A stretch of 24,247 nt of DNA from assembly GCA_003154115.1 (NCBI GenBank), contig PMCF01000162.1, forward strand, positions 3,958 through 28,204, given 5' to 3'. Below are positions 8,611 to 24,247 of the stretch, piece by piece (positions within the stretch are counted from its first letter, which is position 1; every line of letters starts with the position of its first letter). Position numbers and translations under genes: made by a program. The stretch is from Anaerolineae bacterium. GTDB lineage: Bacteria; Chloroflexota; Anaerolineae; Fen-1058. Below the pieces are notes generated by a model. The model was not told the origin of the DNA, did not search any database, and saw nothing but the letters and a program-made list of their open reading frames with translations.

Positions 8611-8653
8611 AACTCGGTCGGCTATTTTTTGCCAGCCGAGTTTTTCTTCTTCT
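8611..8653. terminator. Probable bidirectional terminator after mutS, overlapping the last codons of the convergent tfoX-like gene
   Basis: AACTCGGTCGGC / GCCAGCCGAGTT arms (10/12 paired) with loop TATTTTTT, followed by TTTCTTCTTCTT. Confidence 0.45.
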
Positions 8654-8963
8654 TAACGGGCAAGGGCAATTCTTTCGCGGTGACTTTGATCAACTCGGTC
8701 AGCGCTTCGCGGTCTTCCAGTAGATCGGCGGAAATCAGGAAGCACGGTTTCGCGCCGGGATAAGGGCTGGCTTCCGTAATCGTTTTCAACAGACTTCTGC
8801 CGCCTATGGTCGGCTTGACGAAGAGTTGATCGTCACACACCAGGGCGACCATTTTTCCGTCGCAGTACAGGCCGTATTCGCCAAACATCTTTCGTGCAGA
8901 GACATTGCCTGCTTCTGAAATTTGATCGAGAATGAAATCGACCGTGCTTTGTTGAGAGGACAT
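8622..8963 (-). CDS. tfoX: TfoX/Sxy N-terminal-domain protein (competence-regulator family, N-domain only)
   Basis: MSSQQSTVDFILDQI...ARKMFGEYGLYCDGKMVALVCDDQLFVK is a typical TfoX_N signature. No TfoX_C domain; lysine-rich tail. Start at the ATG preceded by GGAG (8963) rather than the upstream ATG at 8981. Confidence 0.7.
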   Translation of the reverse strand: MSSQQSTVDFILDQISEAGNVSARKMFGEYGLYCDGKMVALVCDDQLFVKPTIGGRSLLKTITEASPYPGAKPCFLISADLLEDREALTELIKVTAKELPLPVKKKKNSAGKK

Positions 8964-8981
8964 GAAAACTCCTTGAATCAT

Positions 8982-16767: not shown

Positions 16768-18108
16768 CTAATTGTCTCCAAGCAGACCGGCCAGCGCTTT
16801 TTGCAATCCGCTGCGCGGTACCTGGCCCGCCACCATGCCTGATTGTCCGTTGACGGCGACGGCGAAACTTTCTTGCTTGTAGCGGTAGGCGGTGATCCAT
16901 AGCGGCAGCAGCACCAGCTTGTAGGATTCAATAATCATTCCGCTGGTATTCATGAAGAAGTCTTTATAGTTTTCTCCGGCCAGAGTGGCATTTTGCACAT
17001 GGGCCTGTCCAATTTTCAAGGCGCGCTGCCGCGCGACGAGTGAAGCGTCGGCGAGTGGAATCTGATAAATCTCGGCGGCGTAATCGGCCAGGAGATCGGT
17101 CGAGTAGGGAACCAGCGCTTTCGTATCGTAGTCCATCACTTCGTTCAGTAAATCTTGCGACACCGAATGTGTGGCGGGCACCAACAGATCGTCGTGATAG
17201 ACCAGATACACTTCATTGCGCGGAACCCACACGGTTTGCTTGCCGTGCTGTTCCCCGATGAGGGCGCGCCAGTTCATGGTGCCGCCCAGATCGAAAGTCC
17301 AGACCGGCAGATACACGCCGCGCGGTTTAGCGATAGCCGCGCGTTTATCTAAATCATCGGGCCGGTGTTTCTGGTGTTCGATCCAGGTGCGAATGAACTT
17401 CAGGGCGGCCTCGGCGTTGAATTGAAACGGCAGTACTGCTTCGGGCTGAATGAGCTCGCCGGTGGTGGCCGTGACGACATGGTTCGATCCGCAGAACGGA
17501 CAAGCCCCGCTGACTTGCAGCGGCGGCAGAGCGAAGGTCGCGCCACAGGCTTCGCATTTCAGGACGCGCGCGGTGGGCAGTTCCCAGCGATACGCCTTGG
17601 CGGTGGGCAAAGTCGCCGAGAAATCTTGCTCGCTGATCAACGCGCCTTGTTGAATGGCTTGATATTCAAAGAGATGGTTGCCGCAATACTCGCAGGTGAG
17701 TGAGCGCTTGGTCGCATCGTACGACATACGCCCGCCGCACTTGGGACAGGCGTAACGACGCACGCCAGCAGGCGAGGGGGCTACGTTGGGCGTCACCGGC
17801 GCGATCGGTTGGTTGGGATCGATCACGTCTTCGGCTTTCAAACGCCCATCGAGGAGCGCCAGGCCGCGCCGCGCCGGGCCATTCGCCGGATCGAACGCGA
17901 GCACGTTTTCCAGGCAGTCCCGCTTCTTTTTGGGATCATCTTCGACTTCGCTGAGCCACAACCACGCGGTCGTCTTTTGATCAGACTCGGCGTCCTCGCT
18001 GCGCAGCACCCATTCCAGATAGAAGCGCGCTTCTTCCTTATCGCGCGCCTGACCGGTTCTGGCCGCCGCCACTCCACGTACGAGCATTTGACGAACACTT
18101 TCAGACAT
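16768..18108 (-). CDS. Uncharacterised cytoplasmic protein, paralog A: TPR-like helical N-domain + double CPxCG zinc ribbon + unknown about 250-aa C-domain
   Basis: CPKCGG...CEYCG and CEACGATF...CPFCGS. AGGAG RBS 7 nt before the ATG. Shares collinear motifs with the next gene: TAWLWLS, DP-N-ARRGL, LKC--CGATF-LP--QVSG-CPFCGS-HV, HDDLLVPATH, SYKLVLLP-W, NGQ-G. Confidence 0.7.
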   Translation of the reverse strand: MSESVRQMLVRGVAAARTGQARDKEEARFYLEWVLRSEDAESDQKTTAWLWLSEVEDDPKKKRDCLENVLAFDPANGPARRGLALLDGRLKAEDVIDPNQPIAPVTPNVAPSPAGVRRYACPKCGGRMSYDATKRSLTCEYCGNHLFEYQAIQQGALISEQDFSATLPTAKAYRWELPTARVLKCEACGATFALPPLQVSGACPFCGSNHVVTATTGELIQPEAVLPFQFNAEAALKFIRTWIEHQKHRPDDLDKRAAIAKPRGVYLPVWTFDLGGTMNWRALIGEQHGKQTVWVPRNEVYLVYHDDLLVPATHSVSQDLLNEVMDYDTKALVPYSTDLLADYAAEIYQIPLADASLVARQRALKIGQAHVQNATLAGENYKDFFMNTSGMIIESYKLVLLPLWITAYRYKQESFAVAVNGQSGMVAGQVPRSGLQKALAGLLGDN

Positions 18109-18128
18109 GGATCTTCTCCTGCTATGAT

Positions 18129-19442
18129 CTACTCATTTCCCAGGATGCGACTTAGCCTATGCCGCCATCCCTCTGGCGGTTCTTCCCCTGCGGTGTTGCC
18201 AGTTTGTCCATTGATAACCAGACGATAAATCTGATCTTGAAAGCGATAGCGACCGAGCCACACCGGCAATAGAACCAGCTTGTAGGATTGAACACCCAGT
18301 CGAGTGCTATCAACCCGTGCAGTGTAGGGAAGCGGAAATCCAAATGAGGCATCAAGCCGGAGCACAAACGGTGCATTTTGTTGGGCGATGTTGACTGCGT
18401 GTTGTCGTGCGATGAGTGAAGCATCGGCCAGGGAAATTTGATATACCTCGGCCGACCAGGCCGCCAGGATTTCACTAGAATAGGGCTGTAAGGCGGTGGT
18501 GCTAAAATCGCCCACTTGATCGAGGAGATCCATGGGGATGGTGTGGGTTGCCGGCACCAGCAGATCATCATGGCGGACCGGGCGGACATTGCCTACCCAT
18601 TCTCCACCAGCTAGTATGCCTTCTCGATCGCGGATCGGATGATAATGCGTGTTGAAGCTGATTTCGCCGTCCAGATCAAACGTCCAGTGTGGCAAATATA
18701 CAGCGTGCAGACGTGAGGCGCTGATCTTGTGTTCCGGCGAGTGATGGTGCTTGAGCCAATCCTCAGCGGCATGCTGCGCTTCTATCTCGTCGATTTGAAA
18801 AACGAGGATGCCATCGGGCTCGATGAGATCGGTTTCTGTCGTTGTTTCCAGCACGTGCAGCGATCCGCAGAACGGGCACTCGCCAGAAACCTGGAATTTG
18901 GGCAAAGTAAAGGTGGCGCCGCAACCGGAGCATTTGAGAGTTTGTGCAACGGCCAGATGCCAGTTTTGGGCCCGACGGGTTGGTAGTGCTGCGAGGAAAT
19001 CTTGTTCGCCTGTGGCATGATGCAGCGTGAGCTGCGGATCGCGATGATAGCCGCAATATTGGCACGTCAGCTGATTGTGCGCTACTTCGAATTCCAGCGT
19101 GCCGCCACACTGAGGGCAGGAGCTGCGCCAGACTCCGTTTGATGCGTGGGGGTGGCTTAGTTCGTGAGACGCGAGACGCTTTTTCAGGATGGACAAACCG
19201 CGCCGAGCCAGAATATTATCCGGATCGAGTTCCAGGGCTTGATCGAGACAGAATTGTTTATCCGCCACATCACTTTCAAGTTGACTCAGCCATAGCCACG
19301 CGGTGGCTTTTTGCTCGGAGGTGGCGTCGGGACTGCGGAGAGCCCATTTGAGACAAGAGCGTGATTCAGCATGATCGCTGGGCATCTGAGATTTGGCGGC
19401 AGCGATCCCGCGTGCCAGTATTTGATCAATAGTTTCGGACAT
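18129..19442 (-). CDS. Uncharacterised cytoplasmic protein, paralog B of 16768..18108 (TPR-like N-domain + double zinc ribbon + C-domain)
   Basis: Start at the ATG (19442) preceded by AGGAGAG. CPQCGG...CQYCG and CSGCGATF...CPFCGS. Same domain order and motif set as paralog A. 20-bp gap to paralog A. Confidence 0.7.
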   Translation of the reverse strand: MSETIDQILARGIAAAKSQMPSDHAESRSCLKWALRSPDATSEQKATAWLWLSQLESDVADKQFCLDQALELDPDNILARRGLSILKKRLASHELSHPHASNGVWRSSCPQCGGTLEFEVAHNQLTCQYCGYHRDPQLTLHHATGEQDFLAALPTRRAQNWHLAVAQTLKCSGCGATFTLPKFQVSGECPFCGSLHVLETTTETDLIEPDGILVFQIDEIEAQHAAEDWLKHHHSPEHKISASRLHAVYLPHWTFDLDGEISFNTHYHPIRDREGILAGGEWVGNVRPVRHDDLLVPATHTIPMDLLDQVGDFSTTALQPYSSEILAAWSAEVYQISLADASLIARQHAVNIAQQNAPFVLRLDASFGFPLPYTARVDSTRLGVQSYKLVLLPVWLGRYRFQDQIYRLVINGQTGNTAGEEPPEGWRHRLSRILGNE

Positions 19443-19563
19443 GCTACTCTCCTGATAGTGACCGTAGTTTACCCGATTGCCGACAGACTGAAAAGTCTGT
19501 GTTTTCGTTAGATCATCTAGCGAGATACCGAATTGTTTGACGCAGCGTGCGCCACAGAACACA

Positions 19564-19621: not shown

Positions 19622-20113
19622 ATGTTTCGACGCTATCTGTTTGTCCTACTGTTCAGCGTTGCGTTTTTGAGCCTGGCAGCTTGCGCCGCGCCCGCTCGCC
19701 CGATCGAGCGACCGACGTTTCGCTACACGCCGCTGAAAGGCGATCCCAAGATTGTCTTCACGGCATCGAATGAGCTGCTCCTGGTCGACATTACCAGCCC
19801 GACCGGTATCGGCAGTGTGACGATTGAGAAAGCCTCCGGTCAGTGGCCGCCTAAGGTTGTGATGCGGCAGCACGTCAAAGGCTTAGAGAGCTTCAAATTC
19901 AAGTATGGCGCAAAAACGGTGGAGGTGTCGGTCTCTGCTGTTCAAACGCGCGAAATATTGGTTCAAGAGGGACAGATCAGCACGCTCAGCCCCGGTGATA
20001 CTTGGGTGAATGTGACGCGCAACCCCGGCTACTTTGACATCGAGGCCCCGGCAGATTTCCTGACGAGCGGGGAAAACAAATTCACGATCGAGTGGATTGA
20101 CTTCTATCGTTGA
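19622..20113 (+). CDS. Hypothetical lipoprotein
   Basis: Start at the internal ATG. Signal peptide with lipobox (LSLAAC). 163 aa. No recognisable domain. AAGGGG upstream. Confidence 0.6.
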   Translation: MFRRYLFVLLFSVAFLSLAACAAPARPIERPTFRYTPLKGDPKIVFTASNELLLVDITSPTGIGSVTIEKASGQWPPKVVMRQHVKGLESFKFKYGAKTVEVSVSAVQTREILVQEGQISTLSPGDTWVNVTRNPGYFDIEAPADFLTSGENKFTIEWIDFYR

Positions 20114-20114
20114 T

Positions 20115-20180
20115 GGAGAAACCGGGTTTCACCTTTCCAGATCGTCACGCAGTTCAAATGGCAGAAACCCGGTTTCTTCT
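20115..20180. repeat. Paired palindromic repeat (GAGAAACCGGGTTTC ... AGAAACCCGGTTTCT) between convergent genes; REP-like / probable bidirectional terminator
   Basis: Each arm is itself a palindrome, and the two arms are mutual inverted repeats separated by about 31 nt. Begins 2 nt after the lipoprotein stop. A second copy is at 23891-23953. Confidence 0.5.
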
Positions 20181-20185
20181 CTTGC

Positions 20186-21355
20186 TCACGGTTGAGCGGT
20201 CACTGGCGTGGCCGGCGTTTCTCCCAAGAACTGTGCTGCGATCTTGGCGATCTTTTCCCAATCGGGCAACAGCACCTGTCCACCCTGCGGTGTGACGTAC
20301 GGCTGAATCATTGTCTCGTCGATGCGATAGGTGTGAATATTCTCGCGCGGGATTTGGCCCCACTTTTTCGCCAACGACAGAATCTCCGGCAAGGTGAGAT
20401 CGGTGGCGAGTGAATCGCCGACGGCATTCAACACCTCCGGCACCTTGTCGATCGAACCGATGCTCAACGCCTTATCGCGAATGGCCAACATCACTTGCTG
20501 CTGACGCTGCAAGCGACCCAGGTCGCTGTCCTGGTGCCGCGTGCGCACGTATTTCAAGGCCAGATCACCATCCATGTGAATGCGGCCCGCCGGGATCACG
20601 AGTTGCTCGGTGCGATAGTCGGGCGTGGGATAGGCGTTGTCGACGATCTCGCGCGGCACATCAATGTCTACCCCGCCCACCGCGTCGACGATTTTCTGGA
20701 AGCCGTTAAAGTCGATGATGGCATAGCGCTGCAAAGGCACGCCAAAATTGCTGGTGATAGTCTTTTCCGCGTAGGCCGATCCGCCGCCGGGCAGCCGGTT
20801 GACTTCGCCCCAGGCATAGGCGGCATTGATGCGACTTCGGACGTTCGTGCCCGGCAGCGGCACGTAGAGATCACGTGGAATGGACAGCAGCGCCGCCGTT
20901 TTGCTGATCGGATCGATCGTGACGAGCGTCATCACATCGGTATTGAGTCCAGCATCGCGCAGCGTGCCGCGCGAATCGACGCCCAGCAACAGCACGGTGA
21001 CTCGGCCATTGTCCGGGGCGGGCCACACATCGCTGTCGTTCGTCACGATCACCTTGGTGACTTGTCCGATGGTGCTGATCGTTTCTCCGACGTTGCGTCC
21101 CAGCCAGCGATCGCGCAGTGCCAGCAGCGTAGTAGGCCCGATCGCGGCCAGCACTAGGCTCGTGCTGGCGCACATCAATACGATGACCGCGAGCAGGCCG
21201 GTGAAGACATATAGCCCGATCGGCTTGCGGCGGCCCGATCGGATAGTTGCATTCACGCGCAAACGCGGCGACGGCTGCGTCTCCTGCGACTGCCAGCGCG
21301 CAACTGTCGATTGTGAACTCCAGATTGAATCGTTTTTTGACATCAGGGCTTTCAT
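20186..21355 (-). CDS. LytR-CpsA-Psr (LCP) family cell-envelope phosphotransferase
   Basis: N-terminal cytoplasmic tail + single TM (LYVFTGLLAVIVLMCASTSLVLAAI). LCP core LLLGVDSRG...TDVMTLVTIDP...ALLSIPRDLYVPLPG...RINAAYAWG. Start uncertain: ATG 21355, ATG 21343 or TTG 21391. Confidence 0.8.
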   Translation of the reverse strand: MKALMSKNDSIWSSQSTVARWQSQETQPSPRLRVNATIRSGRRKPIGLYVFTGLLAVIVLMCASTSLVLAAIGPTTLLALRDRWLGRNVGETISTIGQVTKVIVTNDSDVWPAPDNGRVTVLLLGVDSRGTLRDAGLNTDVMTLVTIDPISKTAALLSIPRDLYVPLPGTNVRSRINAAYAWGEVNRLPGGGSAYAEKTITSNFGVPLQRYAIIDFNGFQKIVDAVGGVDIDVPREIVDNAYPTPDYRTEQLVIPAGRIHMDGDLALKYVRTRHQDSDLGRLQRQQQVMLAIRDKALSIGSIDKVPEVLNAVGDSLATDLTLPEILSLAKKWGQIPRENIHTYRIDETMIQPYVTPQGGQVLLPDWEKIAKIAAQFLGETPATPVTAQP

Positions 21356-21399
21356 TCTTCCTGTAAGATAACGGGCGTGATTGTACAACAACTCACGGG

Positions 21400-21430
21400 A
21401 AACAAAAACGCCGCCCCCTGGAGGACGGCG
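21400..21430 (-). terminator. Intrinsic terminator downstream of cspA
   Basis: On the minus strand: GC-rich stem CGCCGTCC-TCCAGG-GGGCGGCG followed by UUUUUGUUU. 26 nt after the cspA stop. Confidence 0.6.
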
Positions 21431-21456
21431 CTGCTATTCAGTTGTCAGCTGCGGGA

Positions 21457-21666
21457 TTAAATGGGGCTAACGTCCTTGGCCTGCAGGCCTTTGGGGCCGT
21501 GTTCAACTGAAAACTGCACGCGCTGGCCCTCGTTCAGCGTGCGATAGCCGGTCATCTCGATGGCTGAGTGATGTACAAACACGTCCTCGCCGGTCTCTTG
21601 CGAAATAAAGCCATACCCCTTCGCATTGTTGAACCACTTCACGGTTCCGGTTACCTTGTCGCTCAC
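21457..21666 (-). CDS. cspA: Cold-shock protein CspA family (S1-like cold-shock domain)
   Basis: [21 protein letters not shown]...DVFVHHSAI with RNP1/RNP2 motifs. GTG start with AGGAG 8 nt upstream. 69 aa. Confidence 0.9.
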
Positions 21667-21814
21667 GGTTGCTGCTCCTTCAGAATGATTGAAATGTTAG
21701 GCTGCAGTAAGGCCCGGGGCGGAGTAACAAAAAATCCGCTTCAGGTTCCCGTAAGCCCGAGCGGATCTTGACTGCTACAACCACTTCAGGTTCTTACCGC
21801 TTCCTACGCGCCAA

Positions 21815-21843
21815 ACTATAGCATGCGGCTGTGGTAATGTCAA
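21815..21843 (-). promoter_or_regulatory. Strong sigma70-type promoter of cspA with a long (about 140 nt) 5' leader
   Basis: On the minus strand: TTGACA (21843-21838), 17-nt spacer, TATAGT (21820-21815). The predicted TSS, about 140 nt upstream of the GTG, gives a long leader as in enterobacterial cspA. Confidence 0.55.
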
Positions 21844-22065
21844 ATTTCGCAGTTTTTGGCGATTGGACTTTATCGAGTATAACCGCCGCTGCTTATCAAA
21901 CCGCGCAGACGGGGAGCCTATTTTCGATAAAGTCCATTGAGCGAAGGGCCTCTGAAGGTAAATGTATTTTCAGAGGCCACGCAGTCTTATGCTCGCGTAA
22001 CGTCATCCTGGATTAAGGAGATTACTCTTGCTGGCGGGTGTTCCGGCGGCGTCCTTGCGTAACAC

Positions 22066-22638
22066 CTACGCCGCGACCGACGGCTTGTCAGTCACTTCTT
22101 CCGGCACGGCCATGCTCACCATGCCGGCGATCGCGCCGGCGGCATTGGTGTAGATCGTGCGGCTGATGCGATTGAAGCCGGCCACATCGACGATCGAGGG
22201 CATGAAGGTGATATCCTTCGTGCCGGCATACGCGCTGACATCGCCGCCGCCGACCGTGGAGACCATCAGCTTCGGCACACCGACGGGCAGGGTGCGCATC
22301 GCGTTCGTCGCGATCGAGGTGCCGCCGCTGCCGCCCATGCTCAGGATGCCGTCGAGTTTTCCGGCGTCGTACAATTGCCGTACGATGACAGCGAGTCCGG
22401 TGGCCATCGCCTTCATCGCTTCGTCTTTGTGCTCGCCAAAGCGGAAGCGTTCCAGATCGCCGCCGCCGGCGGCAGCCACGGTGCCACGACTGATGTCCGG
22501 CTCAAACGCCGGTTCACCCAGCACACCAAAATCAACCACGATCGTTTTCACACGTTTCTTCTTGAGCAGCGCTTTGACATAGGCAAACTCTTCACCCTTG
22601 GTGTCAAGCGCGCCCACTATGACCACTGTCTTTGCCAT
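22066..22638 (-). CDS. UPF0261 / Tm-1-like N-terminal-domain protein (short form, C-terminal domain absent)
   Basis: MAKTVVIVGALDTKGEEFAYVKALL... and GGSGGTSIATNAMRTLPVGVPKLMVST resemble the N-terminal half of UPF0261 proteins. The intact ORF stops at 190 aa, and no ORF encoding a C-terminal half is seen downstream. Confidence 0.5.
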   Translation of the reverse strand: MAKTVVIVGALDTKGEEFAYVKALLKKKRVKTIVVDFGVLGEPAFEPDISRGTVAAAGGGDLERFRFGEHKDEAMKAMATGLAVIVRQLYDAGKLDGILSMGGSGGTSIATNAMRTLPVGVPKLMVSTVGGGDVSAYAGTKDITFMPSIVDVAGFNRISRTIYTNAAGAIAGMVSMAVPEEVTDKPSVAA

Positions 22639-22704
22639 GATCCTGTCTCCTTTCTGAGAATGTGAAGTTCGGGAAATGTAGGGACCGCCCCGGCCAATCG
22701 GGGC

Positions 22705-22713
22705 TGGTATAAT
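22705..22713 (+). promoter_or_regulatory. Extended -10 element (TGGTATAAT) of a candidate promoter for the yjbQ-yhhN operon
   Basis: TGnTATAAT at 22705-22713, about 33 nt upstream of ATG 22746. No good -35. Divergent from the UPF0261 gene. Confidence 0.35.
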
Positions 22714-22745
22714 CCAGTGCGGAATTTCGGCAGAAGGATGTCAAC

Positions 22746-23162
22746 ATGATCGTCTCCAAACAACTCACGTTGAGCACACGCGGTAACGGCGACACGATCG
22801 ATATGACGCCCGGTGTTGAGCGGGCCCTGAAAGAATCTCAACTCGCCAGCGGCGTGATCACGTTGTTCGTCGTCGGTTCCACAGCCGCCTTAACGACCAT
22901 CGAATATGAAGACGGCGTGATTGCTGATCTGGGCCGAGTGTTGGAGAAAATGGCGCCGCGTCACGCCGAGTATGAACATCATTTACGTTGGGGTGATGAC
23001 AACGGCCACAGTCATGTCCGCGCCGCGTTACTCGGCCCAACGTTGAGTATACCATTTGTCGCCGGGCGCTTGACCCTGGGGATGTGGCAGCAGATCATCC
23101 TCATCGATTTCGACACGCGCCCGCGGCAGCGCGAAGTTGTGGCGCAGATCATAGGAGAATAA
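22746..23162 (+). CDS. yjbQ: YjbQ/UPF0047 family protein (secondary thiamine-phosphate synthase-like)
   Basis: 138 aa. LTLSTRGNGDTIDMTP ... ITLFVVGSTAALTTIEYE ... HSHVRAALLGPTLSIPFVAGRLTLGMWQQIILIDFD is a characteristic YjbQ signature. GAAGGA RBS. Confidence 0.8.
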   Translation: MIVSKQLTLSTRGNGDTIDMTPGVERALKESQLASGVITLFVVGSTAALTTIEYEDGVIADLGRVLEKMAPRHAEYEHHLRWGDDNGHSHVRAALLGPTLSIPFVAGRLTLGMWQQIILIDFDTRPRQREVVAQIIGE

Positions 23163-23164
23163 GC

Positions 23165-23872
23165 ATGCTCAATCCCGTGTACTTACTCGTTGCACTTGGC
23201 CTGGTGGCGATTCCCGTCATCCTGATCACCGCCTTCATCTTCGGCCACACCAATGCCGAGCGAACCCGCCGCACGATCAAGCCGCTGCGTCTATCGACTT
23301 CGTGGATTCTGGTTGCGTGCGCGTGGATCATTTTTAGTGTGAGTTCGACGCTGCGCACGCCCGCGTTGTTGATCGCGCTGGGGATGACGTTGGGGGCGCT
23401 GGGCGATTTGGTGTTGGCCGATGTGATTCCGTTGCCCAAGCGCATGATCAGCGGCATCATCGTGTTCTCGATCGGTCATCTCTGCTATATCGCCGGCTTC
23501 TCGCAAACAGCGCGCGCGTTGGGCTTGAGCGATCCTTTTTCGGAATCGATCTTGTGGGCGGCCTTCGTCATCGTCGCGGCGCTGCTGTGGTTTTTCCTGA
23601 TCTACAATCCGGCCAAGGCGCGCACCTTGAATTTAGGTTCGTTGTTCTACGGTGGGTTGATTGCGATCATGGCCGGTACCGCTACGGCTCTGGCCTTGAC
23701 CGATCCGCGCTTCACCCTGACCGCGATCGGCAGCGTACTCTTCTTGATCTCCGACATTATTCTGGGCAACCGCGAGTTGCGCGACAACGACTGGTTCCTG
23801 GTGCACGATGTGGTGTGGGTGTTATACATCACGGGCCAAGCGTTGATCGTCTTGACCACGATGTGGGGCTAA
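23165..23872 (+). CDS. YhhN-family (lysoplasmalogenase/TMEM86-like) integral membrane protein
   Basis: Start 2 nt after the yjbQ stop with AGGAGA RBS. About 7 TM helices. YhhN motif GSVLFLISDIILG. The ORF-track start at 23084 overlaps yjbQ and was not used. Confidence 0.75.
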   Translation: MLNPVYLLVALGLVAIPVILITAFIFGHTNAERTRRTIKPLRLSTSWILVACAWIIFSVSSTLRTPALLIALGMTLGALGDLVLADVIPLPKRMISGIIVFSIGHLCYIAGFSQTARALGLSDPFSESILWAAFVIVAALLWFFLIYNPAKARTLNLGSLFYGGLIAIMAGTATALALTDPRFTLTAIGSVLFLISDIILGNRELRDNDWFLVHDVVWVLYITGQALIVLTTMWG

Positions 23873-23890
23873 CGGCGCCGCGCGTGAAAC

Positions 23891-23953
23891 GAGAAACCAG
23901 GTTTCTCCAGTTGGAACGGAATTGCACTCTGATATGGAGAAACCCGGTTTCTG
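23891..23953. repeat. Second copy of the paired palindromic repeat (GAGAAACCAGGTTTCTC ... GGAGAAACCCGGTTTCTG) between convergent genes
   Basis: Same architecture as 20115-20180. Begins 19 nt after the yhhN-like stop and ends 13 nt before the convergent LLM gene stop. Confidence 0.5.
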
Positions 23954-23965
23954 TGTCAGGTGTCG

Positions 23966-24247
<282 letters not shown>

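Follow-up and report, generated by a model that had tools for sequence, protein, structure and literature searches.

Repetitive extragenic palindromic (REP) sequences, their inverted doublets (REPINs) and the genes for REP-associated tyrosine transposases (RAYTs) form bacterial systems whose defining arrangement has been described (PMC3116915; PMC3337134). The best-known examples are those of the Proteobacteria, including Pseudomonas fluorescens SBW25 and the REP/bacterial interspersed mosaic element (BIME) repeats of E. coli with TnpArep/RayT (structure 4ER8). They combine many extragenic palindromic repeats and inverted hairpin doublets with a Y1/HUH gene flanked by the repeats, and show a bias toward gene 3' ends. 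A repeat family alike in all of these respects is represented by two units in a 24,247-nt stretch of DNA from an Anaerolineae bacterium (Chloroflexota; GenBank assembly GCA_003154115.1, contig PMCF01000162.1, positions 3,958 to 28,204), referred to here as the window. Each unit, unit 1 near 20,117 and unit 2 near 23,892, consists of two short palindromic arms inverted around a spacer. The units are probably REP doublets, that is REPINs, and the cognate repeat of one RAYT clade. They differ from the proteobacterial systems in lacking a GTAG or CGTC tag and in that each arm is itself a near-perfect palindrome, and their RAYT and E. coli TnpArep are no more than distant relatives. Proteobacterial REPs are also usually lineage-specific (PMC3116915), whereas the core of this family is common to three phyla.

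Two further described groups bear on the comparison. The TnpA-Y1 subclass 2.1 (Quentin et al., 2018), also known as Bertels Group 1 and as 'TIRYT' (Di Nocera et al., 2013), has the motifs NH[YF]H, FQ, and Y[IV]HLNP, which match those of the RAYT clade considered here, and has a similarly patchy distribution across phyla; the clade is thus a candidate member of subclass 2.1, an assignment made by motifs rather than by phylogeny. No REP-like sequences were reported beside subclass 2.1 genes (Quentin et al., 2018), whereas here hairpins flank all eight genes examined. The inverted repeats of TIRYT elements have the consensus GGGG[AT][CG]A[CG]. The GTAG-tagged REPs of cyanobacteria (GTAG-12, -15, and -16; PMC3733652) are likewise palindromic extragenic repeats, and the GTAG superfamily has been reported in Chloroflexi and in the Planctomycetes-Verrucomicrobia-Chlamydiae (PVC) group as well (Di Nocera et al., 2013, PMC3733652). 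Those REPs are defined by an unpaired GTAG at one end, whereas units of the present family carry A at position -1 (96-97%) and T at position -3 in only 17-21%. The exact repeat sequence, as DNA or as RNA, was not found in the searchable literature, and searches combining the organism with RAYT returned nothing specific; the family seems to be undescribed.

The association with a RAYT gene emerged from a Pfam scan of the open reading frames (ORFs) lying between distant cores, which identified a Y1 transposase in a cyanobacterial locus (L079:4325-4963, minus strand; PF01797 at 1.3e-11). The 186-aa protein contains the motifs PNHYHLL, LFQGRF, and RYIHLNPV and scores 81.6 bits against the NCBIfam model NF047646, 'REP-associated tyrosine transposase' (cutoff 80); three other homologs score 68-74 bits. 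A repeat unit begins 11 nt past its stop codon and a tandem array lies upstream. Homologs are numerous, many of them named RayT in their sources, and in 8/8 with readable DNA the same hairpin stands on both sides of the gene. These eight, from Cyanobacteria, Anaerolineae, and Planctomycetota, are the L079 gene, those of Kamptonema (three units on each side), Nostoc sp. PCC 7524, and Capilliphycus, two from Anaerolineae, one from Singulisphaera rosea, and one from a metagenome-assembled genome (MAG) of GC 0.59. Because the RAYT genes are flanked by the hairpin in every case, the units are identified as the REPINs of a RAYT system. The non-cyanobacterial homologs were reached with an artificial query shifted to GC-rich amino-acid usage, and the matches were then verified in their DNA context; queries with IS200/IS608 TnpA matched one unrelated IS200 copy and missed the RAYT. 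The best match in the PDB, with the Anaerolineae homolog P0248 as query, is E. coli TnpArep (4ER8, E = 8.6e-5), a distant relationship. P0248 is 70-74% identical to its nearest relatives in a hit set that is mostly cyanobacterial, which points to horizontal transfer. The gene may be low-copy: one RAYT was found in 1.25 Mb of unit-containing loci, and most homolog clusters are seen on 1-2 contigs, counts that refer to loci and contigs.

The repeat itself is widely distributed. In reference genomes, taken at one per species, at least 119 stretches contain paired arms, with 20-50 nt between the two cores. Among the matches listed, most are from filamentous cyanobacteria (Microcoleus, Lyngbya, Oscillatoria, Calothrix, Arthrospira, and Trichodesmium), and the remainder are from Chloroflexota (Thermoflexales, Chloroflexaceae, Ardenticatenaceae, and Anaerolineae), one Gemmataceae, one Obscuribacterales, and a few unclassified MAGs. 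The initial annotation had supposed a genome-specific family; that restriction does not hold, the same core being present in Cyanobacteria, Chloroflexota, and Planctomycetota. The start-to-start spacing of the arms peaks at 49-52 nt in these mainly cyanobacterial loci. A Chloroflexi-type variant, in which the arms are extended to CTCC...GGAG as they are in unit 2, was found on 63 wetland or peat metagenome contigs with a GC content of 0.53-0.62 and a spacing of 43-47 nt. About one third of the Chloroflexi-type units, unit 2 among them, carry the spacer TCCATTCCAAATGGAATTGAACGTTTAGCATGGA in either orientation. One 13-mer palindrome, with S at its center, does not vary across phyla, while the spacing is fixed within a lineage. 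In relatives of the window organism the density is 1-3 units per 20 kb. Among viral contigs there was only one match, which argues that the element is not phage-borne. In cyanobacteria the units also form tandem arrays with a period of about 83-88 nt, corresponding to one hairpin plus a G-rich linker. The linker (e.g., GAATCTGGGTGGGGGGCT) follows each hairpin in the arrays at L079:4950-5670, L094:6170-6700, and L058:5750-6030 and confers a polarity on the array that the hairpin itself does not have.

A second gene family is found close to many cyanobacterial units. In the cyanobacterial loci (L001-L119) about 15/25 genes for Uma2 nuclease (PF05685) lie within 250 nt of a core, as emerged when the ORFs near the units were clustered; four Uma2 genes are bounded by cores at L058:60-5800, and Uma2 genes stand beside the RAYT in L192 and L193. 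As a general partner of the repeat Uma2 is ruled out, none being encoded in 350 kb of Chloroflexi-type loci.

Within the window, matches to GAGAAACCNGGTTTCTC with up to 3 mismatches occur only at 20116, 20162, 23891, and 23937, against an expectation of 0.03 from shuffled sequence, and one perfect copy of the 14-mer palindrome AGAAACCNGGTTTC is present at each of these four sites. The start-to-start spacing of the arms is exactly 46 nt in both units. The 61-nt units (20117-20177 and 23892-23952) are 74% complementary to one another and so stand in opposite orientations. The arms had initially been described as self-palindromes of 15-17 bp, and this stands for a 15-mer core, AGAAACC[N]GGTTTCT, which is the conserved element and is present in all four arms; the perfect 17-mer palindrome is found in only 1/4 copies (23891). 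In both units arm b is best described as the reverse complement of arm a, and each unit folds into a single long hairpin whichever strand is taken, at -28 to -34 kcal/mol and with a z-score of -3.3 to -6.2.

The folding of the doublet as one hairpin is supported by covariation across the family. The center bases of the two arms are complementary in 128/148 perfect pairs, and in 305/366 distinct pairs when degenerate arms are included, and compensatory double changes that preserve pairing occur at 44 stem positions. For example, the centers are A..T in L071 and G..C in its ortholog L118, and complementary changes are found in the arms of L198 (GAAACCCGATTTC/GAAATCGGGTTTC). In L199 the arms GAAACCCGTTTTC/GAAAACGGGTTTC and GAGACCC.../...GGGTCTC have lost self-palindromy and kept mutual complementarity, so that what is maintained is the stem between the arms rather than a palindrome of duplex DNA. 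Perfect cores are seldom isolated: 16 are isolated against 294 paired in the cyanobacterial loci and 4 against 163 in the Chloroflexi-type loci, and each of the 4 from Chloroflexi-type loci is accompanied, at the distance expected, by a degenerate partner. Two events are seen at the L118 locus. An IS200/IS605-type TnpB (OrfB) element (L118:3380-5270) is inserted about 200 nt from the unit relative to the orthologous L071, and the unit has gained a third arm from a 49-nt tandem duplication.

The positions of the units and of the genes around them are given in Table 1. The initial annotation placed both pairs at convergent stop codons, as is indeed the case, and the two convergent stop-to-stop gaps are nearly filled by the units, one unit each. 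The nearest matches of the window proteins are in Thermoflexales and Anaerolineae. In Rfam, searched with the window at gathering and E-value thresholds and with L192, L079, L195, and L058 at the gathering threshold, the units have no match apart from chance miRNA-like hits. Several other kinds of repeat were considered for the units and ruled out. A CRISPR mini-array would have direct repeats, whereas the arms are inverted, with centers G..C or C..G and not G..G or C..C; hix/gix-like invertase sites, attC sites, and parS/NBS sites are each excluded by sequence register or repeat orientation.

Table 1. Repeat units and adjoining genes in the window (positions counted from the first nucleotide of the 24,247-nt stretch).
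Feature	Position	Strand	Remarks
163-aa hypothetical gene	19622..20113	+	L120 6877-7368 (offset 12745); TGA stop 20111-20113, 3 nt before arm 1a
Unit 1 arm a	20117..20131		AGAAACCGGGTTTCA; center base G
Unit 1 spacer	20132..20162		31 nt; makes up the loop and an imperfect inner stem; spacer similarity places it in reverse orientation to unit 2
Unit 1 arm b	20163..20177		AGAAACCCGGTTTCT; center base C, complementary to arm a
LytR/CpsA/Psr (LCP) family gene	20186..21355	-	convergent; stop 20186-20188, 8 nt past arm 1b
YhhN (lysoplasmalogenase-like) gene	23165..23872	+	TAA stop 23870-23872, 19 nt ahead of arm 2a
Unit 2 arm a	23892..23906		AGAAACCAGGTTTCT; center base A; A-C mismatch (+ strand), G-U pair (- strand)
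Unit 2 spacer	23907..23937		GGAATTGCAC in common with the most frequent Chloroflexi-type spacer (consensus TCCATTCCAAATGGAATTGAACGTTTAGCATGGA)
Unit 2 arm b	23938..23952		AGAAACCCGGTTTCT
Luciferase-like (Bac_luciferase) oxidoreductase gene, 3' part	23966..24247	-	convergent; stop 23966-23968, 13 nt past arm 2b; extends beyond the window

Units are gained and lost among close relatives. Orthologous regions are available from three of these; YhhN identity to the window protein is 92% in L189, 82% in L190, and 80% in L191. Unit 1 is present, partly decayed, in L189 and L190; at its site L191 instead has a terminator hairpin with a U-tract (T-tract) that is unrelated to the unit. In L189 and L191 the site orthologous to that of unit 2 lacks the unit. 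Between the YhhN and luciferase-like oxidoreductase genes these two relatives carry a DinB gene, together with an MFS gene in L189, and the window (23873-23965) has only unit 2, which therefore marks a rearranged junction. Conversely, L189 has a unit between its csp and LCP genes where the window has none. This difference of 127 nt is bounded by a direct repeat of 13-16 nt, so that insertion and deletion are indistinguishable for it. At a unit orthologous between L190 and L191 the arms are kept, while divergence is greater in the spacer than in the DNA to either side. A distinct hairpin built along the same lines, with 18-nt arms AGACCTGACCGGTTTTGC and GCAAAGCCTGTCAGGTCT and a spacer of about 30 nt, is found at L191:8150-8225, where L189 and L190 have a REPIN after the UPF0261 stop codon; it may represent another repeat family or a strongly diverged unit.

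The position of the units relative to genes was determined across loci with a simple codon-bias gene caller, which reproduced most of the public calls for the window. Among Chloroflexi-type units with both flanks called, 42/44 are intergenic, and 19/42 of these lie between convergent genes, compared with a baseline of 18% (p = 3e-5). Their flanks comprise 71 gene 3' ends at a median distance of 11 nt and 39 gene 5' ends at a median of 59 nt. The cyanobacterial units are intergenic in 95/98 cases; 27% are in convergent regions (baseline 18%), and they are depleted from divergent, promoter-containing regions (7%, compared with 18% by count or 24% by length; p = 2e-5 to 2e-3). The REP-like character proposed at the outset, with conserved arms and variable spacers, is thus upheld by units that are strongly extragenic and concentrated at the 3' ends of genes and in convergent gaps (43% against 18%), and convergent placement itself holds as a tendency when checked across loci.

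This distribution could also be expected if the units were primarily bidirectional intrinsic terminators, or RNA hairpins stabilizing 3' ends, selected in place. Such terminators resemble the units: both are hairpins located between convergent genes, A-rich in the 5' flank and T-rich in the 3' flank. The units form strong hairpins on both strands, their outer AGAAA and TTTCT could serve as short A and U tracts, and the fact that L191 has, in place of unit 1, an unrelated hairpin accompanied by an A/T tract suggests that some hairpin is needed there. However, the U-tract of the units is only UUUCU and forms part of the stem. In the window no U-tract extends past the TTTCT of the arm, and a consensus terminator scan does not call the units, whereas the same scan finds canonical U-tract terminators there, such as that at 21407-21432 after the csp gene. 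Nor is there any strand asymmetry: among units with a single adjacent 3' end, the T count in the 10 nt past the hairpin averages 2.8 (sense) and 2.9 (antisense), and folding energies do not differ between the strands. The role of bidirectional terminator or mRNA stabilizer suggested in the initial annotation is therefore unproven, and as the primary explanation, which would leave the 13-15 nt identity across phyla, the tandem arrays, and the RAYT flanks unaccounted for, it is unlikely. Effects on transcripts are a separate matter. REPs in E. coli protect upstream mRNA against 3' exonucleases, and translation can be reduced by REPs that lie about 15 nt or less from a stop codon. Units located 10-20 nt from stop codons may similarly affect 3'-end stability or translation termination, and some weak termination is conceivable.

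Other explanations treat the units as DNA elements of different kinds. They might be MITEs (miniature inverted-repeat transposable elements), i.e., internally deleted insertion sequence (IS) copies with the arms as terminal inverted repeats, moved by a DDE transposase; this would imply an IS with AGAAACCSGGTTTCT ends. Inverted arms around a short internal segment, presence that varies between relatives, and tandem arrays are all in keeping with such an origin, but no full-length, transposase-bearing element bounded by the arms was found, the ORFs between distant cores being ordinary genes except for the RAYT. There is likewise no consistent target-site duplication, TA is not enriched at the borders, and the arms covary as a stem, and a MITE origin is accordingly very improbable. 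Marginally less credible still is that the palindromes are binding sites of a dimeric DNA-binding protein, such as a nucleoid protein, a ParB/KorB-like protein, or the Uma2 nuclease. An invariant 13-mer palindrome, a spacing fixed within each lineage, and the Uma2 genes adjoining cyanobacterial units could be read in this way, but the L199 arms are mutually complementary without being self-palindromic, and Uma2 is missing from the Chloroflexi-type loci. Finally, the inverted orientation of the two window units, with their 74% complementarity over 61 nt, would suit the ends of a single mobile or invertible segment of 3.8 kb (20117-23952). This can be virtually dismissed, since gene order and orientation between the units are the same in L189, L190, and L191, in the presence of the units as in their absence, and no recombinase gene lies inside.

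A REPIN-RAYT system remains the favored explanation, and several observations weigh against it. Neither the window nor the 20.4 kb covered of its 26-kb contig (L120) contains a RAYT gene. The copies that flank the RAYT genes of Anaerolineae are of a short-loop form, with arms 18 nt apart and A/T centers, and not of the 46-nt form seen in the window. The classical GTAG tag is absent from the position profile of the units, with GTAG found only in some lineages (L081, Lyngbya). Apart from the recurrent spacer noted above, Chloroflexi-type spacers are commonly equal in length yet unrelated in sequence, so that a simple model of replication from a master copy fits poorly. No target-site signature was detected, and the sole comparison of a filled with an empty site, that between L189 and the window, could equally reflect deletion.

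Several other features of the window deserve mention. A second palindromic repeat of about 127 nt, unrelated to the first, is found at 8982-9108, just upstream of the start of a 119-aa gene (8622-8981, minus strand). The inverted ends on its outside read TAGAGCGGTTTCCAGGTTAGTTTACGA and CGTAAATCAAAGTGGAATTCGCTCTA, and the arms within them GGACTCGAGGCTTCAGCCGG and CCGGCTAAAGCCTCGAGTCC; among metagenome loci, L149 and L163 hold two further copies each and L170 has the repeat as well, in two cases immediately beside a REPIN unit. On the minus strand, 21403-21786 gives a weak Rfam match to the cspA thermoregulator (33 bits, compared with a gathering score of 78) that spans a 69-aa cold-shock gene (21457-21666), its 5' leader, and the region of the U-tract terminator. 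In the adjoining stretch (21667-22638) the UPF0261 gene is shortened and encodes 190 aa, compared with 400-419 aa in relatives; the neighboring PEP_hydrolase gene is missing beside it, and about 400 nt of non-coding DNA is left, which looks like a lineage-specific deletion or a pseudogene. Adjacent paralogous genes occupy 16768-19562 (minus strand), one of 446 aa and one whose longest ORF is 477 aa (437 aa in the public record). They share a 98-nt stretch of 70% identity, and faint Pfam zinc-ribbon matches are found for the 446-aa protein only.

Under the REPIN interpretation, a unit would consist of two 15-nt REPs (AGAAACC[G/C]GGTTTCT), inverted around a spacer of about 31 nt and forming a long hairpin as single-stranded DNA or as RNA. 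The cognate enzyme would be the RAYT (Y1/HUH) clade with the motifs NHYH, FQG, and YIHLNP, a member of which the genome of the window organism presumably encodes. If it acts like E. coli TnpArep and IS200/IS608 TnpA, the single-copy RAYT would bind the hairpin in single-stranded DNA, cut beside it, and spread or remove copies in trans. The surviving copies would then be those at the least harmful sites, just past stop codons and especially between convergent genes. The repeat is thus probably a small mobile DNA element. More tentatively, at somewhat less than an even chance, the RAYT traveled with its REP core GAAACCSGGTTTC between Cyanobacteria, Chloroflexota, and Planctomycetota as a horizontally transferable REPIN-RAYT pair. 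If so, it would contrast with the mostly vertical, lineage-specific REPIN-RAYT systems described so far. The assignment would give a concrete origin to a conspicuous repeat of peat and wetland Chloroflexota and of many filamentous cyanobacteria, and would add a REP family lacking the GTAG tag to a RAYT clade that had been reported as REP-free. For annotation, hairpins of this kind should not be labeled terminators or small RNAs by default. With the same REP core found in three phyla, the horizontal transfer of REPIN-RAYT pairs and the recognition of the hairpin become testable.

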